Shown here: positions 4,030-24,261 of the stretch, piece by piece | Layout: every line of letters begins with the position of its first letter | How positions within the stretch are numbered: the stretch's first letter is position 1 | NCBI GenBank assembly: GCA_025457965.1 | Contig: JALOTJ010000001.1 | Span: 1,271-65,270, forward strand | Reading direction: 5' to 3' | Length of the DNA stretch: 64,000 nt | DNA from: Spirochaetota bacterium | Lineage (GTDB): Bacteria; Spirochaetota; UBA4802; UBA5368 | The notes under the pieces: generated by a model | The model's input: the letters and a program-made list of their open reading frames with translations, nothing else | The model's database searches: none | What the model was told of the DNA's origin: nothing | Made by a program: the position numbers and the translations under genes

Positions 4030-4677
4030 TCATCGGTTCTGCAAAATCTGCATCTTGAACATGCCGGCCAGCAGCGAACCGCTCGTCCTCATTTGCTTGA
4101 TTATCTCCTCACGGTTCTTGCCGGGATATTTGCGCAATGTAATCAGCAGGCCATTGAGTGAAGCGATATACATTCGCGCCAGCAGGCGCACATCGCTGTC
4201 CGGATTAAAACGCGTGAAATAGTTTACGATTTCTATCAGGAATACGCGAAAACTTTCGTTTATACTGCTCAGGACCTCATCGTTTAAAGTATCATCGATC
4301 ATGAAGTGGGTGCGCATTTTCAGGTTTTGCTCCTCTCTGGCGAAATGATCAATGATGATCATCGTTATCTCTTCCAGACGGAAATCCTTGCTCGCATTCA
4401 TTTCTTCCATGATCCTGACAAGCAAACGGTTATTGCTGCGAATGTATGCCTCGGCGTAAAGGCACTGCTTGTCGGTAAAATACCGGTAAATTGCCGTTGC
4501 GGTAATACCGGCTTCCTTGGCGATATGCCTCATCGTTACTTTATCGAAAGCCAGTTGCGTAAACACCCGTTCGGCCGCGTTTATGATAAGACTTTTCCTG
4601 TTATCGCGCTCAATTTCCTTTAACTTTGGGAAATTCATAGGTTCATAAACGACAGACTTCTTGTTTGTATGAGCCAT
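4030..4677 (-). CDS. TetR/AcrR-family transcriptional regulator
   Basis: N-terminal HTH RKSLIINAAERVFTQLAFDKVTMRHIAKEAGITATAIYRYF. Starts 3 nt after the stop of the upstream acyl-CoA dehydrogenase. Confidence 0.85.
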   Translation of the reverse strand: MAHTNKKSVVYEPMNFPKLKEIERDNRKSLIINAAERVFTQLAFDKVTMRHIAKEAGITATAIYRYFTDKQCLYAEAYIRSNNRLLVRIMEEMNASKDFRLEEITMIIIDHFAREEQNLKMRTHFMIDDTLNDEVLSSINESFRVFLIEIVNYFTRFNPDSDVRLLARMYIASLNGLLITLRKYPGKNREEIIKQMRTSGSLLAGMFKMQILQNR

Positions 4678-4680
4678 AAT

Positions 4681-5847: not shown

Positions 5848-5914
5848 AAACTCCTTATATTTTTCATTTACCATCGAGGCATACCGGGGAGCCTCCAGCA
5901 CCGCGGATACGCCG

Positions 5915-7486: not shown

Positions 7487-7577
7487 AGCTCTAACCCTCC
7501 ATTTCTTCGTCTTCAGAGCCCACTTGGCCGGCGAGTCACGCGCCGGCAATTCATGGAACATTCCACGAATAAGACAA

Positions 7578-9584
7578 TTATTTATAAAAATCTTTTTTAT
7601 ACAGCTTTACGGAAAGGCCGGTAAGGTCGGCCCATTTCATGGGTCCACCCTTGTCCGCCGGAAAGCCTATGCCCCATATGGCCCCGATATCAATCAGCCG
7701 CGGATCGGCGATTATCTTCTTCTCCAGAAGTTCATGGCCGGTAACCACGAAAGGAGTAAACAGCATCTGCTGAATCTCGGTCTCGCTGTATTCGGCCTTT
7801 TTACCGTCTGGATTGATCAAGGGCAGCACCTCGGGATCAACCTTGCCGTCTTTATCATAATATCCCTTACCGTTTTTGTTGCGACCCAGCCTGCCTGCCT
7901 TATAGACGTTTTCCAGAGAAGGCGGTGCTATCCTCTTGAGCGACTTGGTAAGCACCAGATATGAAGTATCTATTCCGACCTCGTCGGTCAACCGTACCGG
8001 CCCTACGGGGAGTCCAAATTTCATCATGGCGGTGTCGATGCTCTCGATACTTACCCCCTCCGCGAGCAGCTCGTAGGTTTTTATGAAGTATGGGAAAAGC
8101 ATGGCGTTTACCACAAAACCAGGATTGTCATTGCAGACAACCGGACGCTTTCTGAGCGCGGCAGCCAGTGCGATGAGATTATTGATGGTGTCCTCGTTCG
8201 TTTCCTTGCCGCGAATAATTTCCACAAGCTCCATCTTCCATACCGGCGAGAAGAAGTGGATCCCGGCGAAACGACCGGGATTCTTGACGCTTCCGGCAAG
8301 AAGATTGACGGGCAGGCTCGAGGTATTGCTCGCCAGGATACAATTTTCAGAAACTACGCCGCACAGCGACCGGTAGACCTCATCCTTGACCGCCGGGTCC
8401 TCGAACACCGCCTCTATCACCACATCCACGTCCTTAAACTCATCCGTCCATTCCGATACGGGAATAATCAGTTTCATGAGCTGGTCGACTGGCTGCGCGA
8501 GACGGCCCTTTTCAGCCATGCCCTCGAGGACCTTTTGAACCGCCGCTTTTCCGGGCTCGAGCGCCGCCGGGAGATCCTTAACCACAACCGGTTTTTGCAG
8601 TCTCCTCAATATTTCAACTACGATGCCGCGGCCCATGATGCCGAACCCGAGAACGGCGAACTTGTTCATCGATCCGGTCTTGAATCCCTTCGGAATCATC
8701 GTCTGCGGCTTGTCGGAATAGGTCTTCAGAAAGAAGGTATTGATCATGCCCCTGGATTCGGGCGATTTAAGGACATTCATGAAGCACTCGACCTCGAGCG
8801 CAAGCCCCTCCGCAATGGGAACTTTAAGGCCCTCCTTAATGGCCTGGAGCGCGTATTTGGGCCCCGGCAGCTCCCTGCCTCGCGATGCTTTAAGCACTCC
8901 CTTCGTGGCAGTGGCGATCACTTCGTCCAATCCCGCAAAGTCCTGCGCGGGCCTCTTTAGTTCAGCCCTGCCGGATACGATATCATTCGCAAATTCTTTC
9001 GCCGCGGCGAGCAGATCGGCGCTTTCCGGTACGAGTTTGTCAAGCAGCCCGGCTTCGAAACCCTTTTTCGCCGGCATCACCTGACCCTTGAGAATTATTT
9101 CGATCGCGGCATAGCCGATAAGCCGTGGCAGGCGCTGGGTTCCGCCGCCTCCAGGCATGAGGCCTACGGAAATTTCAGGCAATCCCACGAGGGTTTTGGG
9201 GCTGTCGGTGGCGATCCTGGCCGTCATCGCCAGTGCGAATTCGTACCCGCCCCCCATGCACGGTCCGTTGATCGCCGCCACCGTCGGAATGCCGAGGTTT
9301 TCCATCCGCAGGAAGAGTCGACTGAAACGCGTGCACCGTTCCTGGAATTTAGGATAGTCGGTAATGCTGTCTATAAGGGCCAGGTCCCCGCCCGCATGGA
9401 AAGAGCTCTTGCCCGAAATAAATACAACGGCCTTGTAATTCGATTTCTCCCGCTCCAGTCCGGTCAGCACCTCTTCGAAATCAATTACGGCCTGGTCGGT
9501 CCAGGTATTGACCGCCTCTCCGGGCACATCAAAACGAACCACGGCCAGATCATTTTGTTTTTCTAAGATAAATATCTTGGACAT
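7578..9584 (-). CDS. Bifunctional enoyl-CoA hydratase/3-hydroxyacyl-CoA dehydrogenase (FadB/FadJ-like)
   Basis: N-terminal crotonase fold (AVVFISGKSSFHAGGDLALI). Central NAD-binding KFAVLGFGIMGRGI followed by a 3HCDH C-domain. RBS GGAGGA. Confidence 0.9.
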   Translation of the reverse strand: MSKIFILEKQNDLAVVRFDVPGEAVNTWTDQAVIDFEEVLTGLEREKSNYKAVVFISGKSSFHAGGDLALIDSITDYPKFQERCTRFSRLFLRMENLGIPTVAAINGPCMGGGYEFALAMTARIATDSPKTLVGLPEISVGLMPGGGGTQRLPRLIGYAAIEIILKGQVMPAKKGFEAGLLDKLVPESADLLAAAKEFANDIVSGRAELKRPAQDFAGLDEVIATATKGVLKASRGRELPGPKYALQAIKEGLKVPIAEGLALEVECFMNVLKSPESRGMINTFFLKTYSDKPQTMIPKGFKTGSMNKFAVLGFGIMGRGIVVEILRRLQKPVVVKDLPAALEPGKAAVQKVLEGMAEKGRLAQPVDQLMKLIIPVSEWTDEFKDVDVVIEAVFEDPAVKDEVYRSLCGVVSENCILASNTSSLPVNLLAGSVKNPGRFAGIHFFSPVWKMELVEIIRGKETNEDTINNLIALAAALRKRPVVCNDNPGFVVNAMLFPYFIKTYELLAEGVSIESIDTAMMKFGLPVGPVRLTDEVGIDTSYLVLTKSLKRIAPPSLENVYKAGRLGRNKNGKGYYDKDGKVDPEVLPLINPDGKKAEYSETEIQQMLFTPFVVTGHELLEKKIIADPRLIDIGAIWGIGFPADKGGPMKWADLTGLSVKLYKKDFYK

Positions 9585-9685
9585 TTGAGTTCCTCCATCG
9601 AGTTGTTTACGGCAAGTAAAACATAATGGCTTTCCGATCTTCTGTCACGATTGCACTTTCATGCCGACCCGTACGGGGATTATGT

Positions 9686-10255
9686 TCAGCATGTTATCTT
9701 CCATTCGCAATACAGTCCGCACCCCAGCGTTTCCGGCGGTATCCTTACCGGTACCGCTTTCATGTTCGGATTAAAGTACGCGGTCTGGAAATCCATCATG
9801 CGCTGTTCAATTACCCGGCAGAAATTTTGCTCGCGGCCCTCGCCTTCCTTCACCAGTGCGTCAATAGTCGGACAACTTGTCGCCCGCATTATCCCATGGC
9901 TCCTGGATAACAGTTCGAGCTCCATGCGAATATTGCCCGCCCAGGCCATGAGCTGGGAGGCTTTGAAAAAGGCCTCGACGTCGTTACCGGTGATATTGAA
10001 CATCCGGGTGAGGTGTTTGAGCTCATAGCGCATGTGCTTTTCCCATACCCAGAGGTCCATCTCCATCGCTATCTCGTTGCCGAAGCGTTCTTTGGCCGCA
10101 AGGTACCAGAATCCATCCACCGCCAGAAACATCTTGCGGTAAAGATCGAGGCCTTTCAGTCTCATCTCTTCGCTGAAGGAGTCCCAGGTTAAATCCGGCC
10201 TGAATTCGCCGGCGTAATCAGTCATGCCCCCCATCTCATCCTCCGATGTTTGCAT
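9686..10255 (-). CDS. Conserved hypothetical protein with a C-terminal Cys cluster, inside the acyl-CoA operon
   Basis: 189 aa ORF with protein-like composition. Possible starts at 10255, 10234 or 10225. No family recognised with confidence. Confidence 0.55.
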   Translation of the reverse strand: MQTSEDEMGGMTDYAGEFRPDLTWDSFSEEMRLKGLDLYRKMFLAVDGFWYLAAKERFGNEIAMEMDLWVWEKHMRYELKHLTRMFNITGNDVEAFFKASQLMAWAGNIRMELELLSRSHGIMRATSCPTIDALVKEGEGREQNFCRVIEQRMMDFQTAYFNPNMKAVPVRIPPETLGCGLYCEWKITC

Positions 10256-10280
10256 ATTCCCCGGGGAATCTCGCTTATTT

Positions 10281-11299
10281 TTATACGCCCTTCAACCCCA
10301 CCGATTTGCTGATAATATTTTTCTGTATCTGGGTGGTCCCACCGCCGATGGAGAGAATCAGAATATCGCGAAGGTATCGCTGCATATCATAATCCATGGA
10401 AGAGCCGTCCGGACCGAGAATATTGACGCCCTGTCTGATGATGTTTTTACTCGTTTCCGCGGCGAAATACTTGCACATCGAGGTCTCTTTGGTCGGCGAG
10501 TACCCGGCGGCCTCTTTCCAGGCCGTGGCATAGGCGAAGGTCCGGGCCACCTCCAGCTCGGTGGCCATCTTTGCCAGGGTGTGCTGAATCGCCTGGGTAT
10601 CGGCCAGGGGATTGCCGCGCTGCAGCTTAGCGATCGCGTATTCGAGGGCGTCTTCATACGCCGCCTGGGCCATTCCGATCGCGCACGCGGACAGCACGAG
10701 CCGCTCCTGGTTCAGCAGCTTCATCTCCTGCTTCCAGCCATTATTGAGCCCCTTTTCCTGCCCGCCAAGTATGTACTGGGGCAACACCTTTACGCTGTCG
10801 TAATACACCTCGCAGGTATTCGACCCGTGATAGCCCAGCTTGTCGATCTCCTTTGTCGAGTATCCCTCCTGCTTCGTGTCCACGATAAACGACGTGATGC
10901 CGCCGTATTTCGACGGGCTCGTGCGGGCGAAGGTTATCGTGTATCGCCCCTGGTCAACTTCGGCAGGAACTCCTTCTTCTGTTCCGGGCTGCCGTTCACC
11001 GATATTATTTCATTTCCGTACAGGAGTATGTTCCCCAGGGACCAGCAGAGAACCGGCAGTCTTCTGGATATCTCTTCGAATATTATCATGAGATCGAAGA
11101 TATCCCCATCCATACCCCCATATTCCCCGGAGATATTAATTCCGCAGAGACCCATATCGACGAACTTCCTGACCAGGTCCATGGGAAATTTGCCTTCACG
11201 GTCTACTTCACGGGCCTTCTCGCGAGGGATTTCCCTCTCGACATAACTCCGTACACGCTCCCGCAGCTGGTCCTGTTTTTCACTGAATTTGAAATCCAC
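10281..11299 (-). pseudogene. Acyl-CoA dehydrogenase pseudogene with a frameshift and an internal deletion of about 60 aa
   Basis: N-terminal ACAD domain (GTG 11299 to stop at 10934, ending EQKKEFLPKLTRGDTR). The same gene resumes in another frame at 10883 with YTITFARTSPSKYGGITSFIVDTKQEGYS, which is the ACAD mid-domain, and runs to 10281. The segment carrying the xAFALTEPxAGSD motif is absent. RBS AAGGAGAT before the GTG. Confidence 0.75.
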
Positions 11300-11355
11300 G
11301 ATTACTATCTCCTTGCGATCACTCGCATGATCTGATCTATTTCCAATGCGTACTG

Positions 11356-11811
11356 CTACGCCCCGGACGATTTGCGGTACATGAGAAATTTCATGTCGAA
11401 GACCATTACCGTTTCTTCGCGCTGATTTTTGATCGTATACCTCCAGGTCTGCATGCCCTGGGTCGGCTTGCCCGTCTCTCGCCTGTCCACGACCTCAACA
11501 TTGTTGGTAATCGTATCGCCGATCTTCACGGGAGCGAGCATTTTCATGCCATCGACTCCCATCCAGGCGATTATCGAGCCTCCTTCCACCCTGGCGAGCC
11601 CGGCCATTCCGACCGCCATCCCGAAAATGAGAGGTCCATGGGCCACGCGCTCCTTCATCGGCGACCTGGCGGCAAACTCCCTGTCCATGTGAAGCGGATA
11701 AAAATCCATAGTCAGGCCCGCCCAGTTCACGATGTGGGTTTCGGTTACCGTTATTGAGGGGGTCTTAAAGGTGAATCCTGTGTCGAAATCATCCCAATAT
11801 TTATCCGGCAT
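11356..11811 (-). CDS. MaoC-like (R)-specific enoyl-CoA hydratase/dehydratase
   Basis: Hot-dog fold. RBS AAGGAGAAA. Confidence 0.85.
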   Translation of the reverse strand: MPDKYWDDFDTGFTFKTPSITVTETHIVNWAGLTMDFYPLHMDREFAARSPMKERVAHGPLIFGMAVGMAGLARVEGGSIIAWMGVDGMKMLAPVKIGDTITNNVEVVDRRETGKPTQGMQTWRYTIKNQREETVMVFDMKFLMYRKSSGA

Positions 11812-11857
11812 CGCTTTCTCCTTGATCCTGCGGATTTACCAGGCGACCGTTCAATCA

Positions 11858-12280
11858 TCACTTCAACGCAACGGGCCTGAATTTCGGCAATGTAATATCG
11901 TCATTGAGCTTTTCGAACACGACTTCCACGGGCATATCGCAACGCACATCCACGGGATCGCACCCGACGATATTGCTCAGCATCTGCACCCCTTTCTCCT
12001 GAAGTTTGACGATGGCGATCACGTATGGCATATCGTCGACGAACGCCGAAGGGCAATTGCTCTCCACCACCGTATATGAGTAGACGGTGCCTTTGCCGGA
12101 CGACTGGACCCATTCCAGATCATCCGAAAAGCAACTGATGCACGCGATCCTCGGATAAAAAATATTGGTGCCGCACGACCTGCACCGCTGATACACGAGC
12201 CTGCCTTCGCGGGCCGCCTCCCAGAATGGTTTCACCCAGGGATTTACCACCGGCGACGGTTTTTTAGGTTTATCCATCAT
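11858..12280 (-). CDS. DUF35 Zn-ribbon/OB-fold protein (thiolase-associated scaffold, BbsA/PhlB-like)
   Basis: CRSCGTNIFYPRIACISC zinc ribbon followed by an OB fold. RBS AGAGGAGG. Sits 13 nt downstream of a thiolase. Confidence 0.85.
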   Translation of the reverse strand: MMDKPKKPSPVVNPWVKPFWEAAREGRLVYQRCRSCGTNIFYPRIACISCFSDDLEWVQSSGKGTVYSYTVVESNCPSAFVDDMPYVIAIVKLQEKGVQMLSNIVGCDPVDVRCDMPVEVVFEKLNDDITLPKFRPVALK

Positions 12281-12293
12281 ATGCCTCCTCTTG

Positions 12294-13478
12294 TCACGGA
12301 ATCTCGGTTCCCAGGATGGTCACCTGCGCGTCCATGTACGTACCTCCCGTGGCCGTTTCCAGTGCGAAGCGGGCGTTCTTTACCTGCCTGTCGCCCGCCT
12401 TGCCCATAAGCTGGCGGACGGTTTCGACCATCAGCGCCACCGCTCCTCCTGCGCCGGTATGTCCCTGGGAGAGCATGCCGCCGTTCGTCGTACAGGGGAT
12501 TTTCCCCCCCGGCCAGGTGTCACCGTTGATAAACATTTTGCCACCCTGTCCCCGTTCGGCGAAACCGAGCTCTTCAAACCCTATCAGCTGATAAATGGGG
12601 TAGGAGTCATATATCTCGGCCACGTCGATTTCCCTGGGCGTAATTCCGGCCATTTCGAAGGCCATTTTCCCCGCCTTCGCCCATCCGAAGCGACTGACGT
12701 CCGGCTCCTGGGAGTAAACAAAATGCGTTACGGTTCCCCCTTCCCCGAGGAGATAGACCGGCCGGTCCGTGATATCCCGGGCCCGCTCGGCCGATGTGAC
12801 AATGAACGCGGCCCCGCCGTCGAACAGCATGTTCGACATCTTGGCCCGAAGCGGCGTGGACAGCATCTTGCTGGCCATCACCTCTTCAATGGTGAGGGGC
12901 TTTCTAAAGAAGGCGTTCGGATTGAGTTCCGCCCATTTGCGGTTCGAGACACAGATCGAGGCAAGCTCCTCGTCCGTGGTCCCGGTCTCGTACTTGTAGC
13001 GGTTTGTGGCAAGGGCCGCGATGGCCGAATAGTGCTGTCCGTACGGGACCTCCCATTCGCTCGAAATACCCGCCGTGGAAAACAGATCGATGCCGCCCTG
13101 GAGGCTCACGCCGGTGCCCAGCTTGTCCGCGTGGACGAACAGCACCGTCGAGGCGCCGCCGCTGTTTATGAGGCTCGCGGCGATCTCGAGCGCGCAGGTG
13201 CTGCTCGATCCGCCCGCGAAGATCTGTGCGTTCCTTTTGACGTTTTTCAGGCCCAGCTCCTCCACCACCCGGCATGTTACCAGCTCGGTATTGAAGGCCG
13301 GGCTGAAAAGCGCCGCGGTGGGCAGCACATAGTCTATGTCTTCCTTGTTGATGCCGGCGTCCCGTATCGCCATCTTTGCCGATTCGATCGCATAGCTGAT
13401 CGCGCCCGCCTCGGGGTACCTTCCGGTCGGGATTTCTCCTATGCCGACAAACGCGATCTTTCCCTTGAGGTTGCTCAT
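12294..13478 (-). CDS. Thiolase-like protein, SCP-x/nonspecific lipid-transfer-type (BbsB/PhlC-like)
   Basis: Thiolase fold with C-terminal GGAVALMVETVRQL. RBS GGGAGGA. Confidence 0.9.
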   Translation of the reverse strand: MSNLKGKIAFVGIGEIPTGRYPEAGAISYAIESAKMAIRDAGINKEDIDYVLPTAALFSPAFNTELVTCRVVEELGLKNVKRNAQIFAGGSSSTCALEIAASLINSGGASTVLFVHADKLGTGVSLQGGIDLFSTAGISSEWEVPYGQHYSAIAALATNRYKYETGTTDEELASICVSNRKWAELNPNAFFRKPLTIEEVMASKMLSTPLRAKMSNMLFDGGAAFIVTSAERARDITDRPVYLLGEGGTVTHFVYSQEPDVSRFGWAKAGKMAFEMAGITPREIDVAEIYDSYPIYQLIGFEELGFAERGQGGKMFINGDTWPGGKIPCTTNGGMLSQGHTGAGGAVALMVETVRQLMGKAGDRQVKNARFALETATGGTYMDAQVTILGTEIP

Positions 13479-13511
13479 GATATCCTCCCAGTCGATTGTT
13501 GCCGCCGCGGT

Positions 13512-14720
13512 TTATGCCCCATGCTTGCCCAGAATCGCGATACTGCACACGTTCATGAAGGGGAAGCCCCCGAGGTTATGGGTAAGCCCGAACCGCGGAT
13601 CCTTGAGCTGCCGCTTGTCCGCACGATTGAGCAGCTGTAAATACATCTCGTAGATCATGCGCATGCCTGACGCGCCGATCGGGTGTCCGAAACATTTTAG
13701 TCCACCGTCGATCTGGCAGGGAATTTTCCCGGTCGCATCGTAAAAGCCGTCCATGATGTCCTTCGGCGCCTTCCCCCGTTCGGAAATGTGCAGGTCTTCC
13801 ATGGTGACCAGCTCGGTGATCGAGAAACAGTCATGCACCTCGATCATGCTGAGCTCTTCCCGCGGATTTTTTATCCCCGCTTCCTTGTACGCGAGGGCGC
13901 TCGCCTTGTCGGTGGTCGTGAAATATGAGCCGTCCCACTGATTGTACGACATCTCTTCCCCGTTGCTGAGGGCCGTCTGCAGGGCCTTGACCGTTACGAT
14001 GTCCTTCTTCCCGAGGCTTTTTGCGATCTCGGGCGTGGTGACAATCGCGCAGGAGCTTCCATCGCTCACGCCGCAGCAGTCGAACAGGCCGAGCGGATAG
14101 GCCACCATGGGAGAATTGAGCACGGCCTCCTCGGTGACCGGGTTGCGCAGATGCGCCTTGGGGTTCAGCGCCCCGTTGGCATGGCTCTTCACCGAAACAT
14201 GCGCCATGGCCTTCTTTATGTCTTCCATAGGTATGCCGTACTTGGCCGAATACGCGCTGGCCAGCATGGCGAAACAGCCGGGAGCGGTCATGTTCGGAAA
14301 CCACAACTGGTTGGTGAGCCCCATGCCCGATCCGAAATCCGGCAGACCCGCGTATCCTATGTCCTTGAGTTTCTCGACCCCTATGGCAAGGCAGATGTCG
14401 TACGCGCCCGATGCCACCGCGTATACCGCGCCCCTGAAGGCCTCCGTGCCGCTCGCGCAGTAATTCTCGGTGCGCGTCACGCCGATTTTCGGCAGCCGCA
14501 GGGCTATCGCCGGGGGCAATCCGCTTTTACCCACGTTCACTTCATCGAGACACGAGCCGAACCACGCGGCCTCGATTTGCTTTTTATCAATCCCGGCGTC
14601 CGATATGCACTCCTGGAAGGCTTCCACCATCAACTCTTCCGATCCGCAATCCCATCGCTCGCCGAACCTGGTGCATCCCATTCCGATAATTGCGACCTTG
14701 TCTTTTATACCAGTTCCCAT
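13512..14720 (-). CDS. Thiolase (acetyl-CoA acetyltransferase-like, SCP-x type)
   Basis: VAIIGMGCTRFGERWD N-terminus. Active-site region NYCASGTEAF. C-terminal CFGHPIGASGMRMI. RBS AAGGGGGAT. Confidence 0.9.
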   Translation of the reverse strand: MGTGIKDKVAIIGMGCTRFGERWDCGSEELMVEAFQECISDAGIDKKQIEAAWFGSCLDEVNVGKSGLPPAIALRLPKIGVTRTENYCASGTEAFRGAVYAVASGAYDICLAIGVEKLKDIGYAGLPDFGSGMGLTNQLWFPNMTAPGCFAMLASAYSAKYGIPMEDIKKAMAHVSVKSHANGALNPKAHLRNPVTEEAVLNSPMVAYPLGLFDCCGVSDGSSCAIVTTPEIAKSLGKKDIVTVKALQTALSNGEEMSYNQWDGSYFTTTDKASALAYKEAGIKNPREELSMIEVHDCFSITELVTMEDLHISERGKAPKDIMDGFYDATGKIPCQIDGGLKCFGHPIGASGMRMIYEMYLQLLNRADKRQLKDPRFGLTHNLGGFPFMNVCSIAILGKHGA

Positions 14721-14731
14721 TGTATCCCCCT

Positions 14732-16189
14732 TTATCCCACGATTTCCGGGACGGCTTTCCAGAAATAGCCCCTGAATCCACGCATATCATCCTTGAGCCT
14801 GAGCCGGAAAGCCATAGTGACCGGCAGCCCCACCTTGACGTCGTCCAGCGCGCAATCGGTGAAATCAGCGAGCATCCGTCCGCCATCGGCGAAGGTGACA
14901 ATCCCATAGACTGCCGGCGGATCGATGGAGGCGGCAAGCATATCGCCGGTATACATGAGCACGCTGGCCTTCTTGTCCGTGAACTCATACGGATCCATTT
15001 CGCCTACCGCGTTGCATTCGGGATTGACGCACATCGGGGTGAATACGAACTGGGGGGTGCCGCACTTTCTGCACTTCCCGCCCACCAGGCCGATGAATTT
15101 CTTGCGGTTCCGCCACAGAACGGTCAGCGAAGTGTTCGGCGTAACCTCCCCGCGGATACCGAGGTCGCTTTCGCCGAGTTGCCTGAACGTGATAAACTTT
15201 TCGTAGCTCGTGAGCACCCGTTTGACCGCGAGGTGTCCCTTCACTCCCCTTGGGCCCTTGAAAGAGGCGAGTTTGTCGGTCGCCTTGAAGCACAGCACGT
15301 CACAGCCCTGCCCGAACCCGGCAAGCAGTATTTTGTCGCCCGGTTTCGCCGTTTCAAGCGCGGCCACGAGCATCAGCAGCGGATGCGCGGCGCCGGTATC
15401 TCCGCAGAGCTCGTGCATCGGGCTCTGCAGCTGTTCCGGGGTTATCCCGAGTTTTTTGGCTATCCCGTTATGGGTGGCCGCAAAATAACAAGGGTACACG
15501 ATTTTGGCGAAATCGCCGATCGCCATTTTGGTCTTCTTCAAAAAACCCGCAACCGCCTGGGGGATGATCTTGCCGAAGCCCTCGTCCCTTATCCAGCGCT
15601 CTTCCCAGCCGTAGTCGAACTCCTTGCCGGCGCCCCTGTAATGAGCGATGAAATCGCAGTTAATCGAATGACTGTCGATAAACTCGGCAATCACATCATC
15701 GCCTCCCAGGAGCAGCGCCGCCGCGCCGTCGCCCAGGTACATCTCGGACATGGTCGCCATCTTGGTCTTGCGCGTGTCGGCGGCGGCCACCAGCGCGCAT
15801 TTTTTATCGCCGGATTTCAGCGCCGAAAGGCCCGATATGAGCGCCGTGGTTCCGGCCTTCTGGCTCCCCGTGAAGTCGGCGCACGTGGTGCCCTCCTCGT
15901 TCACGTTGATCGCCGTGGCCAGAATGTCCGAATTGAGCCTGTCGGAAAACGGCATGGTGGTCGAGGCCATATACACCGCATCGACCTTCTTCCTGTCCTT
16001 CCCCTGCGCGCAGTCGATGGCGGCCGCCACGGCCATGGTAAGCGTGTCCTCGTCCCAGTTCGCCACCGATTTCTCTCCCTTGGCGGCGCCGAATATGACC
16101 GGCTGGTACCACGCCATGGTCTTCGCGATGATTTTACGTTCTATCCTGAGGCGGGGGATATATCCCCCGTACGATGTTATACCGATCAT
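14732..16189 (-). CDS. Archaeal-type HMG-CoA synthase-like condensing enzyme fused to a C-terminal DUF35 Zn-ribbon/OB-fold domain
   Basis: N-terminus MIGITSYGGYIPRLRIERK matches the archaeal HMGCS/PhlA-type start. C-terminus CRKCGTPQFVFTPMCVNPEC plus OB fold is a DUF35 domain. RBS AGGGGGATT. 11 nt gap to the downstream thiolase. Confidence 0.8.
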   Translation of the reverse strand: MIGITSYGGYIPRLRIERKIIAKTMAWYQPVIFGAAKGEKSVANWDEDTLTMAVAAAIDCAQGKDRKKVDAVYMASTTMPFSDRLNSDILATAINVNEEGTTCADFTGSQKAGTTALISGLSALKSGDKKCALVAAADTRKTKMATMSEMYLGDGAAALLLGGDDVIAEFIDSHSINCDFIAHYRGAGKEFDYGWEERWIRDEGFGKIIPQAVAGFLKKTKMAIGDFAKIVYPCYFAATHNGIAKKLGITPEQLQSPMHELCGDTGAAHPLLMLVAALETAKPGDKILLAGFGQGCDVLCFKATDKLASFKGPRGVKGHLAVKRVLTSYEKFITFRQLGESDLGIRGEVTPNTSLTVLWRNRKKFIGLVGGKCRKCGTPQFVFTPMCVNPECNAVGEMDPYEFTDKKASVLMYTGDMLAASIDPPAVYGIVTFADGGRMLADFTDCALDDVKVGLPVTMAFRLRLKDDMRGFRGYFWKAVPEIVG

Positions 16190-16198
16190 ATAATCCCC

Positions 16199-17644
16199 CT
16201 ATTTCTTTATCCCGGCCATGTCCTCGACGAGTTTCTTCGATTTGGCGATGATCTTTTTCGCTTCCATGAGAATTGTCATGCGCTCGGCGAACGGGGAGCC
16301 TTCTCCGTGCAGGCAGATCGTCTCGAGGTCACCTGCCGTCAGACGCCTTACCAGGTCGAACATGCGCAGCCGGTTCTCGGTGGAAACCTCGGGATTCGCC
16401 TGGAGATATTTTTCAATATCAGCGTGGGTTTCCGGGTTCTGCCAGTCGCGATATGTCGGCGCGGTGACGAGAAGGCCACCGGCGAGGTCCTGGATGATTT
16501 CCACGATCTTGTGATAGTTATGCGCGAAGTGATATTTCGCGATGTTGGTAGTGATCGGGTTCGGCACCGGTATCCCCGCGTGCATGACATAATCCAGACA
16601 TGCAGAACGCGACAGCGCGGTAAGGGTCTCAAGGTAAATGACGATCTCGGTGATCTTCTCCTTGACGTGCGGCGCGCCGGAAATGCCGTTATAGTCGGCG
16701 ATGGCGACGGCGATCCCAAGGAGTTGCTCGCTCATCGGTATACGATAGGCGCAGCCCGTTCTGCGGTGCATGAGGGCGAAATTATACACGCAGGTGGCGG
16801 CAACCTGCCACTCTCCGCAGAGGAAAACCCTGTCCCACGGTACAAAGACATCGTCAAAGATTATAAGCGAGTCGGTGTGCATCCTCCGAAGCTCGCTTCC
16901 AACGGGAAACTCATCGACGCTTATTCTGCCATGGAACGGGCGCACAATCTGGCGTATGCCTTTGGCATTGGCCGGAACGGCAACGGCCACCGCGTAGTCA
17001 CTGTCCTCGGGACCGCTCAGCGCGCGACACGGGATGGCGAAAAATTCATGGCAATAGGCGGCGCCTGTAATGTGAACCTTCGCGCCCCGGAGAACTATGC
17101 CATCCTTACGCTTCTCGACGATACGCAGGTTGAAATCAGGGTGCGCCTGTTTCGGATCCGATGGCCGAAGATGACGGTCACCCTTCACGTCGGTCACGCC
17201 CGCGACCACGCACTTGTCGGTCTTCTGAAGATACTTGCGATACTTCTCTATCCGCTCCAGATAAACCTTGCCGGCATCTCCGAGACTACGGGCTGTTATT
17301 GCGATCGCGTTCATCGCGTCGGCGCCGATATCGTGCGCAAGCGGAATATAGCCGTCGCCCAACTCGGTGGCCTTGATGATCAGATCAAGGTGCTTGAGTA
17401 GATCCTCGCCGTTCTTGGGCACATAATAATAACGGCTGATATTCTCGCCAAGCTCCTCATCATACACAAGCGCCAGATCTTTGTACTGCGGGTCCTCGGA
17501 CATATGATAATCGACGGCCACGGTTTCCACACAGGCTTTAAGATCCGGATCTTCGGCGACGTTTTCGATCTTCCTGCCCTTGTAGTATACAATTCTTCCG
17601 TCGTTTAAACTTGTCTTATATTCTTCCGGCGTCATTAAACCCAT
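16199..17644 (-). CDS. HpaB/AbfD-family flavoenzyme (4-hydroxybutyryl-CoA dehydratase/vinylacetyl-CoA isomerase-like)
   Basis: About 480 aa, the length and general composition of this family, with Cys/His residues placed as in AbfD (CVVAG, AAYCHEFFAIPC). Family call made from memory of AbfD; it is not motif-proven. RBS GGGAAGAGG. Confidence 0.65.
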   Translation of the reverse strand: MGLMTPEEYKTSLNDGRIVYYKGRKIENVAEDPDLKACVETVAVDYHMSEDPQYKDLALVYDEELGENISRYYYVPKNGEDLLKHLDLIIKATELGDGYIPLAHDIGADAMNAIAITARSLGDAGKVYLERIEKYRKYLQKTDKCVVAGVTDVKGDRHLRPSDPKQAHPDFNLRIVEKRKDGIVLRGAKVHITGAAYCHEFFAIPCRALSGPEDSDYAVAVAVPANAKGIRQIVRPFHGRISVDEFPVGSELRRMHTDSLIIFDDVFVPWDRVFLCGEWQVAATCVYNFALMHRRTGCAYRIPMSEQLLGIAVAIADYNGISGAPHVKEKITEIVIYLETLTALSRSACLDYVMHAGIPVPNPITTNIAKYHFAHNYHKIVEIIQDLAGGLLVTAPTYRDWQNPETHADIEKYLQANPEVSTENRLRMFDLVRRLTAGDLETICLHGEGSPFAERMTILMEAKKIIAKSKKLVEDMAGIKK

Positions 17645-17752
17645 GATTATAACCTCTTCCCTGTCAGGTTGTTACAGCATCGTTCGTCTGTACTCGGGGG
17701 CGCGGCATGCACCCGCATGCCGTTCGCCCCTGTCAGCCCTGCCTGCCGCATT

Positions 17753-19378
17753 CTACCAGTTCTTAATCCTTGCCGGCATGGCACGGTGATATGGCTTGAA
17801 GACCTTTTCTTCCATGCTGGATCCCATCATGCTGTCCACGCAAAGCGCCGCGCTCAATGCCGCCGCATCCACGCCGCAACCCCACAGGCGCTCGCCGTAC
17901 TGGTCGCCGGCGAAATACAGGCCATCGACCATCTGGGATTTAACATCGATCCGATCGTATCCGATCGGCTGGATCCAGGCAAAGGCGTGGTCGCTGCACA
18001 TCCACAGCATGAAGTCCATATCAGAATTCCACTTGTCGGCGCCGAAGGTCCTCTTCCACCAGTTCTCATTCCATTCCATCACCCGGGAGACCTTGTGCGG
18101 GTTCCGCATTTCCTCATGCGTCATGGCGGTTGAGAATATCCAGCCGTGCCTGTCCTCGGGCGCGGCCCCGGTCTCCTTGGTCAGACCGGGATTGGAATTG
18201 CTGCCCTTAGCCGTAGAGGCCAGGTTCCACAACACCATGTCAACGCATCCGCTGTAGCCTTCCTCCGCTCCGATGATATCCGGCATGTATATGAAGCTTC
18301 TTTCCTCGATGCCCTTCGCCGCCCAGACATCCGACTTCATGTTGCCGAACCCGGTAATCATGCCTGCCCCCCAGAATTCCTTCTGGACCCGGTCGACCAA
18401 CTCCTGAGGGAAGTAACGGGGATGGATCACATTCAGCATCTGCTTGGAGGGTATATTGCAGACCACCTTATCGGCATAGACCGTTTTTATACCGTCCGCG
18501 GTCTGATACGTTACGCCCTTAACCGCGCTGTTCTCGATGATCACCTCAACGACATTGGCGTTTCGCTGCACCTTTCCGCCCTTTTCATTCAGAACCTGCT
18601 CCATTAAAAGGGCGAATGAGATGGTGCCGGGATTGGCGACGGTGGCGCATGAGCCCTCAACCAGGTTCATCTTGATGTCGCCCGCGATGCACATATGGCC
18701 AAGTACGTCCGGCGCCGGGGTCATTCTAAGATCGGCCTGGCCCGTCTGGGACGCCGCAAGGACCTTTATGTAGTCATAGGCTTCCTTGTGTACGTTTCTC
18801 GCCTGCAGCCACTCCTCGAAAGACATATGCGCCGTCTGCGCAACATCATGGAATGTCATGGTGGCCATGTCCCTGAGGGCCCTCATGGTCGACTTGAAGC
18901 CCTCCGGGCTCATCCACCCGTATGGTTCGCCCTTGCCCACCTGATAGGCCTTGTTGCCTTTCTTGCAATCGACAAAAGCGAAGCCGACATTGCAGGGCAT
19001 ATCGACCGGTTTCTCGAGATAGTCCATCAGGTTGCGGATTTTGCCCTTATTGCCCCAGAACAGGCCGTGTCCGGTATCGAGCGTGGTGCCGTCGAACAGG
19101 CCCTTTTCGAAGCAGGTAGTGAGGTCCGGCGTACATTTCGGCACCCACGCGCCGATCAGGCCGAGGGCGCGCCTGAAACCGTTGGCGTCCAGCTCGAGCC
19201 CGTCGATGCTTACCTTGTTTCCCTTGCCGACAAACGACGCCAGACGCCCGCCGATAAACGGGGCCTTCTCGAGGACAAGCACCTTCTGATTGAAGTCCTT
19301 CGCGAGCAGGGCCGCGGAACCGAGTCCCGCCACACCGGAGCCGATGATGATAACATCATATTGTTTTTCTTTTGCCAT
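17753..19378 (-). CDS. FAD-dependent oxidoreductase of the phytoene-desaturase (CrtI-like) superfamily
   Basis: YDVIIIGSGVAGLGSAALLA dinucleotide-binding motif. 541 aa amine-oxidase/desaturase-like fold. RBS AAAGGTGA. Confidence 0.8.
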   Translation of the reverse strand: MAKEKQYDVIIIGSGVAGLGSAALLAKDFNQKVLVLEKAPFIGGRLASFVGKGNKVSIDGLELDANGFRRALGLIGAWVPKCTPDLTTCFEKGLFDGTTLDTGHGLFWGNKGKIRNLMDYLEKPVDMPCNVGFAFVDCKKGNKAYQVGKGEPYGWMSPEGFKSTMRALRDMATMTFHDVAQTAHMSFEEWLQARNVHKEAYDYIKVLAASQTGQADLRMTPAPDVLGHMCIAGDIKMNLVEGSCATVANPGTISFALLMEQVLNEKGGKVQRNANVVEVIIENSAVKGVTYQTADGIKTVYADKVVCNIPSKQMLNVIHPRYFPQELVDRVQKEFWGAGMITGFGNMKSDVWAAKGIEERSFIYMPDIIGAEEGYSGCVDMVLWNLASTAKGSNSNPGLTKETGAAPEDRHGWIFSTAMTHEEMRNPHKVSRVMEWNENWWKRTFGADKWNSDMDFMLWMCSDHAFAWIQPIGYDRIDVKSQMVDGLYFAGDQYGERLWGCGVDAAALSAALCVDSMMGSSMEEKVFKPYHRAMPARIKNW

Positions 19379-19443
19379 TTTCGATCACCTTTATGTTCTT
19401 CAAGTAGTTATACGAATACCGCACTCAAATGTTTTCCCGCATC

Positions 19444-20208
19444 CTATATCGAACCGCCCCCGTCCGCCACGAGGATCTGGCCGGTCATGTACGATGACGC
19501 TTCGGAAACCAGGAACAGGGCGATCCTGCCGATTTCCTCGGGCATGGCGATCCTCCGTAGCGGTGTATGCGACAATTCCTGTTTCATCAGGCTCTCATTG
19601 CTCCACAGGGCCTGGCTGAACTTGGTCTTCACCACTCCGGGGGCGATGGCATTTACGCGTACGCCGAATTCACCCAGCTCCTTCGCCATGGCGCGGGTGA
19701 GCATGCCTATGCCCGATTTACTGATGCAGTAGAGACCCAGCCCGATATCGGGGCTCACTCCTCCTACCGAGGAGATGTTAAGGATATTGCCCGATTTCTG
19801 CTGCTGCATGATCTTTCCCACCAGCATGCTGGTCAAGGTGTATCCCTTGAGGTTGGTGACCATGATCTGGTCGTACATCTTCTCATCCATATCGACCATA
19901 AGCCCCATGCCCGGGTTCGTGGCCGCATTATTGACAAGAATGTCGATCCTGCCGAATTCTTTCATTACGGCGTCCACCAGCACTTTGATCGTCTCGGCGT
20001 CCCGGTTATGGTAGGCAACCGCCAGGGCCTTGCGACCCATGGCGCGAATTTTTTCAGCCACAACGTCAAGGTCCGCCTGTTTCCGGCTCCCCACGACGAC
20101 ATCCGCCCCCGCATCGGCCAGCGCCAACGCAACGGCTTCGCCAATACCACGGCTGCCGCCGGTAACCAGCGCGACTTTCCCTTTTAATGACAAATACGAT
20201 GTATCCAT
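19444..20208 (-). CDS. SDR-family oxidoreductase (3-oxoacyl reductase-like)
   Basis: KVALVTGGSRGIGEA. NNAATN. YCISKSGIGMLTRAMA. ATG at 20208 has RBS GGAGGG. Confidence 0.85.
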   Translation of the reverse strand: MDTSYLSLKGKVALVTGGSRGIGEAVALALADAGADVVVGSRKQADLDVVAEKIRAMGRKALAVAYHNRDAETIKVLVDAVMKEFGRIDILVNNAATNPGMGLMVDMDEKMYDQIMVTNLKGYTLTSMLVGKIMQQQKSGNILNISSVGGVSPDIGLGLYCISKSGIGMLTRAMAKELGEFGVRVNAIAPGVVKTKFSQALWSNESLMKQELSHTPLRRIAMPEEIGRIALFLVSEASSYMTGQILVADGGGSI

Positions 20209-20278
20209 AGCAGTCCCTCCTGAATAATTAGTACCTGTACTGATGAAACCATGCACTGAGCGTCAATCAGCATGCCAT

Positions 20279-20331
20279 CAATAGTAACATATGTTAACAC
20301 CGTTTACACAAGTTAACATTGTTGTCAATAG
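20279..20331. promoter_or_regulatory. Composite palindromic operator: CAATAG-TAACAT-ATGTTAAC-N13-GTTAACAT-TGTTGT-CAATAG
   Basis: Perfect 8 bp inverted repeat ATGTTAAC (20291-20298) and GTTAACAT (20312-20319), flanked by direct CAATAG repeats. Lies between the acyl-CoA synthetase stop (20345) and the SDR start (20208). A related motif, AACATAAGTTAACAC, occurs at 24270-24284. Confidence 0.45.
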
Positions 20332-20344
20332 TTTTTTTCCCGCC

Positions 20345-22183
20345 CTATACAATCTCGGTCCCATTTTCAACATACATCTCATCGATGATGGATGAATACT
20401 TCGAGGTGACGACCCGCCTTTTGAGTTTGAGAGTGGGCGTCAGCTCTCCGGTCTCCTGTGTCCATTCATTGACAATAATACGGTATTTCTTTATCTGCTC
20501 CACCCGGCCGAATCCACGCATCCTCCCCGAGATTTCGCCTTCATATAGATCCCGGACCTGCTGATTCGCGAGGAGAGCGTCTCTCGAGTCGAAAACGATT
20601 CCCTTCTGTGCGGCCCATGCCTCAAGCTCGAGGAAGGCAGGAACGATAAGGGCCGTCAGATACTTTCTGTTATCGCCGATAATGGCGACCTGCTCGATAT
20701 ACGGGGATTCCTTCAGGGCGTTCTCGAGGTTCTGCGGTGCAATATTCTTGCCACTCGATGTGATGATGAGGTCCTTTATACGCCCCGTAATTATAAGGTT
20801 GCCGCCGTCATCGATCATCCCGGTATCGCCGGTTTTAAGAAATCCGTCGCTTGTGAAGGCCTCACGGGTCGCTTCCTCGTTCTTATAATACCCGACCATC
20901 AGCTGCGGCCCCTTTATGAGGATCTCACTCTCCGGCCCTATCTTCACGATCGTGTTTTTCACCGCGCGGCCCACGGTCCCGAGCCGTATGTGGCCGAGAG
21001 TGTTGAAATTCGTCACCGGGGATGTCTCCGAAAGACCGAACCCTTCGACGATGCTGATGTCCATGCCGATAAAAAACTGGGCGTCCAGCGGGTTGAGCGG
21101 CGCCCCTCCGCAACCGACATACAGCAGGCAGTCGATTCCCAGAGCGGCCTTAAGCTTGGAGAATATCAGCTTGTTGGCCAGCCGGTATTCGATGGCGAAA
21201 AGCCCCTTTCTCTTAACGCCGTTGCAAACATAGGGCATATTGCGCCTTCCGACCGACATCGCCCAGCCAAAAAGCGTCCTCTTGACCGCGGAAGCACCGG
21301 CGACTTTTGCGTACACCCCGGCCCGGATTTTTTCGAGCAGCCTGGGAACCGTGGCTATGAGCGTCGGCTTCGAGAGCTTCAGATCATCGAGCACGGTGTT
21401 GATGCTTTCCGCAAAGTACACTTTTATGGCGGCGAAAATCCCGCCATAGTAGACCAGCGTACGCTCGAAGATATGTGAGAGCGGGAGAAACGAAAGGACC
21501 CTCTGTTCATTGTTGATGAATTCCGGAAAGGCCGAGTAGTGCTGATCGATGTTGGTAATGATGTTGCGGTGCTTCAGCATGACGCCCTTCGGATCACCCG
21601 TCGTGCCCGAGGTGTAAATAAAGGTGATAATGGAGTCCGGATCGATCGCGTTGAGGCGTTTATCAAAGACGCCTTTGTCTTTGGCCTTTTTTCCGGCCTC
21701 AAGGGCCTCCCCGAAAGTCTTCGCCCCCTTGATCTTTTGATCGATTTCATCGAAAACGACGATATCGATCAGCTGCGGAAGGTCTTTACGAATCTCCATC
21801 ACCTTGTCGAGGTGCTCCCTGGTGCCCACGAAGCATATTCGCGAATCGGAATTGTTGAGGATATAGCGGGCCTCCTCCGGGGTGTTGGTGGCGTAAATCG
21901 GGACGGTGGTGGCGCCGATGGATATCGACCCCATGTCCGAAACCCACCACTCGTAGCGGTTCGGCGAAAAAATGGCGACCTTGTCCCCCGGGTTAATGCC
22001 CATGGAAACGCAATAAAGCCCTATCGCGCGCACCATCTCGTTCATCTGGTTCCATGAGATATCCTCGAAGGTGCCCTCCCTGGTTTTCTTCGCCACACAG
22101 GCCTTGTCGCCCATTTCCTTCACGCGTCGCTGAAAAATCTCCGGAATCGTCGTCGTGTTCGTTATTGTCGTATCTACTCTCAT
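20345..22183 (-). CDS. Long-chain fatty-acid--CoA ligase (AMP-forming)
   Basis: YTSGTTGDPKGVMLKHRNI AMP-binding motif. 612 aa. RBS GGGGGAGGGG. Confidence 0.9.
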   Translation of the reverse strand: MRVDTTITNTTTIPEIFQRRVKEMGDKACVAKKTREGTFEDISWNQMNEMVRAIGLYCVSMGINPGDKVAIFSPNRYEWWVSDMGSISIGATTVPIYATNTPEEARYILNNSDSRICFVGTREHLDKVMEIRKDLPQLIDIVVFDEIDQKIKGAKTFGEALEAGKKAKDKGVFDKRLNAIDPDSIITFIYTSGTTGDPKGVMLKHRNIITNIDQHYSAFPEFINNEQRVLSFLPLSHIFERTLVYYGGIFAAIKVYFAESINTVLDDLKLSKPTLIATVPRLLEKIRAGVYAKVAGASAVKRTLFGWAMSVGRRNMPYVCNGVKRKGLFAIEYRLANKLIFSKLKAALGIDCLLYVGCGGAPLNPLDAQFFIGMDISIVEGFGLSETSPVTNFNTLGHIRLGTVGRAVKNTIVKIGPESEILIKGPQLMVGYYKNEEATREAFTSDGFLKTGDTGMIDDGGNLIITGRIKDLIITSSGKNIAPQNLENALKESPYIEQVAIIGDNRKYLTALIVPAFLELEAWAAQKGIVFDSRDALLANQQVRDLYEGEISGRMRGFGRVEQIKKYRIIVNEWTQETGELTPTLKLKRRVVTSKYSSIIDEMYVENGTEIV

Positions 22184-22273
22184 GACCCCTCCCCCTTGTT
22201 GTTGTTATTTTTTTCTGATTGTTCCACCCGTCTTTCTCCGCGCGCCGCGCGGGGAGACGGCGACTGCCGCCCT

Positions 22274-24136: not shown

Positions 24137-24261
24137 ACACCCCTCCCTGTTGATTAGTAGATCACCCCATACACTTCCCCGCCCTCCATGAGATCCGGTC
24201 TTTCCATCCGCCGCTTCCCATGAACCGCCACGGGCAAACAAATATTAATGATGTTATCAAA

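Follow-up and report, generated by a model that had tools for sequence, protein, structure and literature searches.

Two putative DUF35-scaffolded thiolase-fold modules, a predicted thiolase with a dead HMG-CoA synthase-like partner and a candidate hydratase/retro-aldolase, in an acyl-CoA gene cluster of a Spirochaetota bacterium

The closest described systems to the genes considered here are of two kinds. Liao et al. (Nat Commun, January 2026; PMC12960953) report 1,030 bacterial clusters with co-localised genes for 3-hydroxy-3-methylglutaryl-CoA (HMG-CoA) synthase (HMGS, or HMGCS), ACAT and DUF35; 1,001 of these are without adjacent secondary-metabolism genes and are represented by a pair from P. 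fluorescens. In this pair HMGS and DUF35 are fused and the HMGS catalytic tetrad is lost, the partner PfACAT has the Cys, HDxF and GHx motifs, and PfACAT/HMGS-DUF35 in vitro carries out acetoacetyl-CoA thiolysis only, neither HMG-CoA nor acetoacetyl-CoA being made (PMC12960953). The second kind consists of the steroid aldolases Ltp2 and Sal, which have a thiolase fold without the nucleophile; the Tyr of YDHF/YDCY serves as base and Tyr344 (Ltp2) or Cys304 (Sal) as acid, and the C304S mutant of CtSal is inactive (PMC12329534). A 64,000-nucleotide stretch of a Spirochaetota metagenome-assembled genome (MAG) (assembly GCA_025457965.1, contig JALOTJ010000001.1, positions 1,271 to 65,270; here termed the window) has, next to each other on one strand, genes that appear to be related to each of these kinds.

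A first-pass annotation of the window had read four genes at positions 11858–16189 as one three-part set: two SCP-x-type thiolases, a free DUF35 protein, and a condensing enzyme matching archaeal HMGCS/PhlA with a DUF35 domain at its C-terminus. All four open reading frames (ORFs) are present on the minus strand at these positions, and the ORFs together with profile searches confirm the free DUF35 and the HMGS/PhlA-like–DUF35 fusion (Table 1). The profiles and the solved relatives also bear out the assignment of the domain architecture to the group of the archaeal thiolase/HMGCS/DUF35 complex, PhlACB and BbsAB. The genes do not form a single set, however. The fusion with its adjacent thiolase is found in a minority of the loci that have the other thiolase-fold gene (which encodes a protein termed here the Cys-less protein), and the Cys-less gene is missing from most loci derived from the fusion; fusion plus thiolase, and Cys-less protein plus DUF35 plus MaoC, each occur alone in most loci examined. 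Since the pair and the triad mostly occur apart, the set is treated as two modules. The reading proposed here, with a rough probability of 0.6 for the whole, is that of two DUF35-scaffolded thiolase-fold modules: Module A would be thiolytic and work with a scaffold, and Module B would be a hydratase/retro-aldolase.

The fusion protein of Module A displays FabH/HMGS-type domains in profile searches, followed in its C-terminal region by DUF35 matches (PF01796, E = 1.5e-8; zf-ChsH2, E = 5.8e-4) with the Zn ribbon CRKC-x10-CVNPEC. Its best solved relatives are PhlA (9skh, 5e-37; 5m3k, 2e-35) and archaeal HMGCS (6esq_I, 7e-24), and residues 358–481 match the archaeal DUF35 protein (6esq_E, 4.5e-12). 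The AlphaFold2 (AF2) model has a predicted local distance difference test (pLDDT) value of 86, with residues 369–481 being all-beta. The modelled N-terminal domain gives target-normalised template modelling (TM) scores of 0.81–0.87 against PhlA, archaeal HMGCS and MucA (Foldseek).

The fold is kept, but the catalytic residues are not. The reference is M. thermolithotrophicus HMGCS with its tetrad E82/C114/H238/N270, residues as named in PMC12960953. In the alignment these are replaced by T/Q/P/D in the window fusion, and its 120 closest homologues, which are 55–83% identical to it, all lack the HMGS residue at each of the four sites. A Thr replaces E82 in 118 of the 120, a Pro replaces H238 in every one, and N270 has become Asp or Glu in 119. 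In place of the Cys, Q, L, T, M or I is found, and such variation is expected of a dead site. The fusion also falls below the cut-offs of both archaeal HMGCS models, TIGR00748 and PRK04262 (194 versus 244 and 122 versus 353 bits). Judged from these residues, the HMGS-like domain is catalytically dead. Of the first-pass term "condensing enzyme", the fold and the relatives stand, while every HMGS catalytic residue is lost; the Cys/His/Glu triad, whose absence on alignment the annotation itself had named as counting against its proposal, is missing, and the HMGCS-like Claisen or retro-Claisen step is rejected on the same tetrad and cut-off evidence.

The public databases label this family "3-hydroxy-3-methylglutaryl CoA synthase". 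Despite the label, an HMG-CoA synthase cannot be among the 120 closest homologues, all of which lack the tetrad, and a mevalonate or HMG-CoA step read from them is wrong.

The thiolase of Module A matches PF22691 (Thiolase_C_1, E = 8e-30) and PF00108 (E = 2.4e-16) and passes NCBIfam PRK06157 (686 bits, cut-off 403). Its catalytic set is complete: Cys88 in CASG, H296-D-C-F, and G-H346-P. The best solved relatives are 7yvy and 6esq_A (4e-54), and the match to PhlC is weak (E ~1e-20). In 19 of the 21 loci inspected the thiolase gene is directly downstream of the fusion gene, and the remaining two end at the locus edge. The genes around the pair vary, i.e. there are MaoC pairs with a short-chain dehydrogenase/reductase (SDR) and a CoA transferase, or there is an acyl-CoA dehydrogenase (ACAD).

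The thiolase would be the sole catalyst of Module A and would cleave 3-oxoacyl-CoA thiolytically. Its obligatory partner would be the upstream fossil HMG-CoA synthase–DUF35 protein, without the Glu, Cys, His and Asn of the tetrad, which would form a complex with it as a structural scaffold and occupy the place that HMGS and DUF35 have in the archaeal complex. Thus the dead HMGS-DUF35 protein probably scaffolds a degradative thiolase, and Module A appears to be a further member of the type reported in 2026.

The fusion may additionally dock other beta-oxidation enzymes, e.g. the SDR or MaoC. Some fusion loci hold the thiolase, two MaoC genes and an SDR gene, in parallel to the archaeal KT/DUF35/SDR/MaoC complex, and the dead-HMGS-DUF35 scaffold is suggested to be able to recruit further enzymes of beta-oxidation or reverse beta-oxidation. 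Four homologues of the fusion (P0095, P0102, P0103 and P0118) carry an extra C-terminal SDR domain and have a chain length of ~800 aa. In the locus of P0095 (L004, positions 10001–12400) the SDR-bearing fusion gene is followed by a thiolase gene and then by an NMO/FabK-like gene.

The central protein of Module B also carries Thiolase_C_1 (PF22691, E = 2.9e-54), and to this extent the reading of two SCP-x thiolases was right; it has no nucleophilic Cys, however, and so is not a thiolase. At the nucleophile site is the sequence GGSSS, which is aligned with GGASS of CtSal and places a Gly at the nucleophile position. Where thiolases have HDCF it has Y290-D-S-Y, aligned with YDHF of Ltp2 and YDCY of Sal, and G-H340 is kept. 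His340 is at the position of the Ltp2 acid Tyr344, and Ser292 is at that of the Sal acid Cys304. YDSY and GH are invariant in 120 of 120 homologues. The best solved relatives are 4u4e (3.7e-65), an uncharacterised Sphaerobacter protein with YDSF, followed by CtSal (9myr, 1.4e-45) and TcLtp2 (6ok1, 3e-36). The sequence is highly conserved, with 66–86% identity across 80 loci from a scan of species-representative genomes and 75–99% identity among the 120 closest database homologues.

The free DUF35 protein, the presumed partner, matches PF01796 (E = 1.4e-22) and PF12172 (E = 2.1e-16) and has the ribbon CRSC-x10-CISC. The MaoC protein carries the hydratase-2 Asp/His motif, TMDFYPLH. Wherever a locus extends far enough to show it, the free DUF35 and MaoC genes come after the Cys-less gene; the one exception is a Syntrophomonadaceae locus without DUF35 (L089). 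Conservation of the triad extends to nearly all 80 loci. These are found in Smithella and other Syntrophales, Desulfatiglandales, Desulfosarcina, Desulfomonile and Desulfatibacillum, and further in Steroidobacter, Woeseia, Terricaulis, Rhodoferax, Zoogloeaceae, Acidimicrobiaceae and Pseudomonadales. An anaerobic pathway had been put forward as an example, but a restriction to anaerobes does not hold, as the triad is also present in Steroidobacter, Terricaulis, Acidimicrobiaceae and Woeseia MAGs, lineages which we take to be aerobic.

Two observations on these loci are added. Both modules often have beside them the gene of an NMO/FabK-like FMN protein that may be an enoyl reductase (L004, L008, L009, L051, and ~40 of the 80 Module B loci); the window cluster has no such gene. 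Two short contigs, one of a Methanotrichaceae MAG (L018, 3.3 kb) and one of a Methanomicrobiaceae MAG (L047, 1.5 kb), carry Cys-less genes with 83–84% identity, and these contigs are most likely mis-binned bacterial DNA from syntrophic consortia.

Because the component list of Module B equals that of ChsH1-ChsH2-Ltp2 and Shy-Sal, the module is read as one of hydration and retro-aldol cleavage, and this appears to be the most economical reading. The MaoC protein would hydrate enoyl-CoA to 3-hydroxyacyl-CoA, and the Cys-less protein, held by the free DUF35, would split the product, with a short acyl-CoA and a carbonyl compound (aldehyde or ketone) being released. Tyr290 would be the base, and His340 or Ser292 the acid or oxyanion partner. 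Such a route would suit a 3-hydroxyl that cannot be, or need not be, oxidised. The module would act together with a CrtI-superfamily flavoprotein and an acyl-CoA ligase. Complex formation, aldolase chemistry and substrate are all putative here, and Module B may be regarded as a variant of the steroid hydratase/aldolase kind that is itself uncharacterised. The first-pass annotation had a blocked beta-position resolved by an unusual C–C cleavage; an HMGCS-like enzyme cannot provide it, but the proposal survives in the form of the putative retro-aldol step of the Cys-less protein.

Several points weigh against the two-module reading. That the dead HMGS acts as a scaffold is drawn from homologous complexes, and the functions given to the window proteins and to the Cys-less family are predictions. 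Neither of the known aldolase acids (Ltp2 Tyr344, Sal Cys304) is present in the Cys-less protein; with a Ser at the CtSal Cys304 position, the protein, if it is an aldolase, needs an acid unlike that of both known types. The His at the position of the second Tyr of Ltp2 is the canonical thiolase residue, and the site could be that of a degenerate thiolase instead of a rebuilt aldolase. An aldehyde dehydrogenase or ketone-processing gene was not found as a conserved neighbour in the loci profiled. Promoter-like and terminator-like sites occur at chance level (15 versus 12.4±2.7 and 19 versus 18.6±4.6), so that the operon boundaries gain no usable evidence from them.

The alternative that survives best, itself unlikely, is that the Cys-less protein is a silent pseudo-thiolase subunit, whether as the partner of an active thiolase or as no more than a tether for MaoC by way of DUF35. 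The missing nucleophile agrees with this, as does the Ser where Sal needs Cys, and pseudo-enzyme partners are common in the thiolase superfamily, with Module A an example. The conservation of the protein argues in the opposite direction: its level of identity is maintained over Spirochaetota, Desulfobacterota, Alpha-, Beta- and Gammaproteobacteria, and Actinobacteria, the YDSY and GH motifs do not vary, and it is more tightly conserved than the fusion scaffold. In addition, the Module A thiolase is not nearby in most of the Cys-less loci.

It is quite improbable that the modules are biosynthetic, i.e. that they serve reverse beta-oxidation or an assembly resembling fatty acid synthesis (FAS) as in the archaeal KT/DUF35/SDR/MaoC complex. 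That complex is built of equivalent parts, SDR fusions exist, and genes for the NMO/FabK-like enoyl reductase adjoin some homologues. Against these stands the content of the window cluster, with two acyl-CoA ligases, three ACADs, a FadB-like protein and TetR, and with a FadR-type regulator ~3 kb beyond; also, the tested P. fluorescens complex fails to condense acetyl-CoA.

A similarly small chance is given to the Cys-less protein being a decarboxylase of (alkyl)malonyl-CoA-type substrates. Alkane degraders among the Smithella, Syntrophales and Desulfatibacillum groups need alkylmalonyl-CoA decarboxylation, and the Cys-less family is frequent in MAGs of these groups; it is, however, equally present in the aerobic-type lineages. 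Decarboxylation is within the reach of Cys-less members of the thiolase superfamily, and TbSLP, a trypanosomal SCP2-thiolase-like protein (YDCF), slowly decarboxylates malonyl-CoA (cited in PMC12329534), but CtSal is without such activity (PMC12329534), and the invariant MaoC partner would be without a role in decarboxylation.

Two further explanations are very improbable. A single ternary thiolase/HMGCS-like/DUF35 channeling complex, with the HMGCS-like protein performing Claisen or retro-Claisen chemistry on a branched CoA ester, would fit the archaeal architecture, the closest folds (PhlA and archaeal HMGCS) and the adjacency of the genes, but the HMGS tetrad is replaced family-wide, the fusion is below the HMGCS cut-offs, the tested P. 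fluorescens equivalent yields neither HMG-CoA nor acetoacetyl-CoA, and the two halves of the set occur independently. Equally remote is a role of Module A in Friedel-Crafts C-acylation of the PhlACB/MucABC type, in which a small molecule would be acetylated: by sequence and by fold the N-terminal domain of the fusion is closest to PhlA, and the tetrad is missing as in PhlA, but the window thiolase, with its weak PhlC match, keeps the HDCF needed for thiolysis and lost in PhlC and MucB, and ligases, ACADs, FadB and TetR surround it in place of polyketide synthase (PKS) or nonribosomal peptide synthetase (NRPS) genes.

In many loci a CrtI-superfamily flavoprotein gene and an acyl-CoA ligase gene flank the triad of Module B, which results in a five-gene unit. 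Genes for the flavoprotein, the Cys-less protein, DUF35, MaoC and the ligase follow one another in this order in three mapped aerobic-type loci from distant phyla (Steroidobacter, Terricaulis and Acidimicrobiaceae MAGs), where the ORF map is partly incomplete; in the Steroidobacter and Acidimicrobiaceae loci the flavoprotein gene directly precedes the Cys-less gene, and in Terricaulis it has the matching position. This conserved order suggests that the flavoprotein belongs functionally with Module B, and by gene order the window flavoprotein, too, is linked to Module B rather than to Module A. The range of the five-gene unit covers Spirochaetota, Syntrophales/Smithella, Desulfobacterales, Steroidobacter, Terricaulis, Woeseia and Acidimicrobiaceae. 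No description of the unit was found in the literature.

The first-pass annotation had named this flavoprotein CrtI-like. It does belong to the amine-oxidase/CrtI superfamily, but full-length similarity to CrtI is not found: the score against crtI_fam TIGR02734 is 23 bits versus 238 and covers the N-terminus only, so that an identity as the phytoene desaturase CrtI is rejected and the likeness stays at the superfamily level (PF01593). The AF2 model has a pLDDT of 92, and the nearest solved folds, at most 16% identical, are uncharacterised archaeal oxidoreductases (3ka7, 3nrn), Rab-GDI, amine oxidases (MAO) and the plant phytoene desaturase PDS (5mog).

The second flavoprotein of the cluster, whose AbfD/HpaB-family assignment is supported by the profiles as is the presence of beta-oxidation genes beside the set, was compared with 4-hydroxybutyryl-CoA dehydratase at the [4Fe-4S] ligands Cys99, Cys103, His292 and Cys299. 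In the window protein C99 is replaced by G, C103 by D and C299 by Y, and His292 is kept; the same three replacements are found in 28, 29 and 30 of 30 orthologues, respectively. A genuine AbfD dehydratase is ruled out, with three of the four Fe-S ligands gone in the window protein and its orthologues, and because of this loss the protein cannot be a classical radical 4-hydroxybutyryl-CoA dehydratase. A FAD-dependent isomerase-type role is possible.

The AbfD-like gene is confined to Syntrophales and Desulfobacterales-type loci. In 22 aerobic-type loci (within L037–L081; e.g. L051, positions 13556–15912) the ligase gene is followed by an ACAD gene and an APH-family kinase gene, and the AbfD-like gene is present in none of the 22. 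LvaA and LvaC are the bacterial counterpart of the ACAD10/11 route. A kinase with an ACAD constitutes this route for 4-hydroxyacyl-CoAs (PMC12440821, PMC11342911). The distribution of the ACAD/kinase pair and the AbfD-like gene hints faintly at a 4-hydroxyacyl or 4-oxoacyl intermediate, and may equally be phylogenetic.

A wider and distinctly tentative proposal, which is rated well below the two-module reading and is rather doubtful as a whole, is that the five-gene unit represents an undescribed, widespread CoA-dependent hydratase/retro-aldolase pathway with a third type of active site (Tyr/His, YDSY...GH), distinct from those of Ltp2 and Sal. It might remove a C2 or C3 unit from acids with a non-oxidisable beta-carbon, e.g. 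isoprenoid-type 3-methyl-branched or ring-substituted alicyclic acids. Intermediates of the 4-hydroxyacyl-CoA or 4-oxoacyl-CoA type might then be handled by the Fe-S-free AbfD-like enzyme in anaerobic lineages, or by the APH-kinase/ACAD pair in aerobic-type lineages.

Both modules are carried by a 17-gene acyl-CoA cluster on one strand of the Spirochaetota MAG (Table 1). The earlier view of a non-standard, tightly spaced acyl-CoA catabolic cluster is sustained, the intergenic gaps across the genes discussed being 9–108 bp on a single strand and synteny being kept in two other loci, L005 and L017. From position 24241 downwards the order is: ACAD (655), FadD11-like ligase, SDR, flavoprotein, AbfD/HpaB-family protein, fusion, thiolase, Cys-less protein, DUF35, MaoC, broken ACAD, DUF6125, FadB-like protein, second ligase, ACAD and TetR. 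This order is fully conserved in L017, from a Deltaproteobacteria MAG, and in L005 for the part that fits the contig. The Cys-less protein is 84% identical between the window cluster and L017, and the conserved order in the two suggests lateral transfer of the cluster between phyla.

Table 1. Positions in the window of the acyl-CoA cluster and of the genes discussed.
Feature	Position	Strand	Accession, profile match or remark
Extent of same-strand cluster	4030..24241	-	profile searches and ORF list
Acyl-CoA ligase	5915..7561	-	PRK06187, 487 bits vs cut-off 476; orthologous to the ligase of the five-gene unit
DUF6125 protein	9686-10255	-	between broken ACAD and FadB-like gene
Disrupted acyl-CoA dehydrogenase	10281..11299	-	two ORFs, 121 + 200 aa, adjoining MaoC
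Single-hot-dog MaoC, (R)-specific enoyl-CoA hydratase	11356..11811	-	PF01575, 4.4e-19
Free DUF35 (C4 Zn ribbon + OB), presumed partner of Cys-less protein	11858..12280	-	
Cys-less SCP2-thiolase-fold protein, putative 3-hydroxyacyl-CoA retro-aldolase	12294..13478	-	NCBI MCU0843304
SCP2/archaeal-type 3-oxoacyl-CoA thiolase	13512..14720	-	NCBI MCU0843305
Fusion: HMGS/PhlA-like domain (~residues 1-340) + DUF35 Zn-ribbon/OB (~358-481)	14732..16189	-	NCBI MCU0843306
AbfD/HpaB-family flavoprotein	16199..17644	-	1u8v, 4e-71; 6vjr, 4e-61
FAD oxidoreductase, amine-oxidase/phytoene-desaturase superfamily	17753..19378	-	PF01593
SDR, FabG-like	19444..20256	-	profile matches; orthologues accompany Module B in many loci

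The broken ACAD was compared by tblastn with the intact 382-aa orthologue of L005, to which it is 88–90% identical. Residues 120–165 of the orthologue are absent and the two halves are in different frames, with the junction at ~10943; either a deletion has turned the gene into a pseudogene or the MAG is misassembled here. A DUF6125 orthologue in the equivalent position is found in L017 only. In the first 34.7 kb of the window, profile searches detected no PKS/NRPS genes, and no mevalonate-pathway genes are among the cluster genes and flanking ORFs profiled. The ligases, ACADs, FadB-like protein and MaoC of the cluster have no substrate-specific NCBIfam equivalog, and thus the substrate is not readable from them.

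Some minor features of the region may be mentioned. A possible internal promoter is the top sigma-70-like match, GTAACA-18-TATAAT (10/12, positions 17675–17646 on the minus strand), in the 108-bp spacer that directly precedes the AbfD-like gene. On the plus strand, opposite the fusion and AbfD-like genes, runs a 903-aa shadow ORF (14690–17401) typical of G+C-rich coding DNA, and evidence for a gene is lacking. With the listed TTG start, the ACAD at 4681–5979 (minus strand) would share 65 bp with the ligase gene upstream; translation probably begins ~45 codons further downstream, because the profile matches begin at ~residue 46. Two further candidate relationships find little support. A pim-like dicarboxylate operon is resembled by L010 (two ACADs, FadB, ligase and thiolase), but no Pim equivalog reaches its cut-off, and the resemblance is a lead at most. 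The thn operon of anaerobic naphthalene degradation in Desulfatiglans TRIP_1 also has MaoC and thiolase genes; genes for a reductase and hydrolase function accompany them, and they have no DUF35 or HMGS-like partner.

When the modules are compared with known systems, the BbsAB thiolase (7pxp) shares with the window an SCP2-type thiolase with HDxF and a DUF35 subunit. However, the scores are far below the cut-offs (38 versus 250 for BbsA; 131 and 147 versus 750 for BbsB), and no bbs or bss genes are present. The Sulfolobus KT/DUF35/SDR/MaoC FAS complex (bioRxiv 10.1101/2024.07.05.601840) has a DUF35-bound thiolase that docks SDR and MaoC, and an equivalent gene set surrounds many of the bacterial homologues; it differs in being archaeal and biosynthetic and in having no HMGS-like domain.

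Module B resembles ChsH1-ChsH2-Ltp2 (6ok1) and Shy-Sal (9myr; PMC12329534) in the Cys-less SCP2-thiolase fold, the first-position Tyr of YDxF/Y, the DUF35 and the MaoC. In the window the DUF35 and MaoC are separate small proteins, whereas theirs are one fusion; the motif is YDSY as against YDHF and YDCY, and a His takes the place of Ltp2 Tyr344 and Sal Gln352. There are no steroid-ring genes in the window, and the flavoprotein and ligase partners differ. Few proteins of the cluster are as conserved as the Cys-less protein, for which no function has been described. If it is an aldolase, it would extend the steroid-only chemistry of Ltp2 and Sal to a general environmental pathway, and would be a new scaffold for biocatalysts that cleave or form C–C bonds.

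For Module A, the archaeal thiolase/HMGCS/DUF35 complex (6esq) has the same three folds with a Zn-ribbon/OB connector, and the N-terminal domain of the fusion reaches a TM of 0.87 (target-normalised) against it. In the window the HMGS site is destroyed and DUF35 is fused onto the HMGS-like domain; from its residues, a channelled two-step condensation as in the archaeal complex is impossible for the window proteins. In PhlACB and MucABC (5m3k, 9skh, 9vbo), PhlA and MucA are closest to the N-terminal domain of the fusion and the tetrad is missing in them too. PhlC and MucB are, however, without HDxF, in contrast to the HDCF of the window thiolase, PhlB is a separate protein, and the context there is a polyketide/NRPS cluster, here beta-oxidation genes.

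The closest likeness is with PfACAT/HMGS-DUF35. Compared by description, the window pair has all of the sequence features reported (fusion, loss of the tetrad, and Cys/HDxF/GHx), and neither pair has PKS/NRPS genes nearby. The window pair differs in its setting, a large cluster of beta-oxidation genes in a Spirochaetota MAG with a second DUF35 module alongside. Such pairs have been called an "evolutionary intermediate" without a pathway (PMC12960953). Unlike an idle intermediate, the dead-HMGS/thiolase pair of the window has a full beta-oxidation context that is conserved across phyla, and this suggests a working catabolic thiolase.

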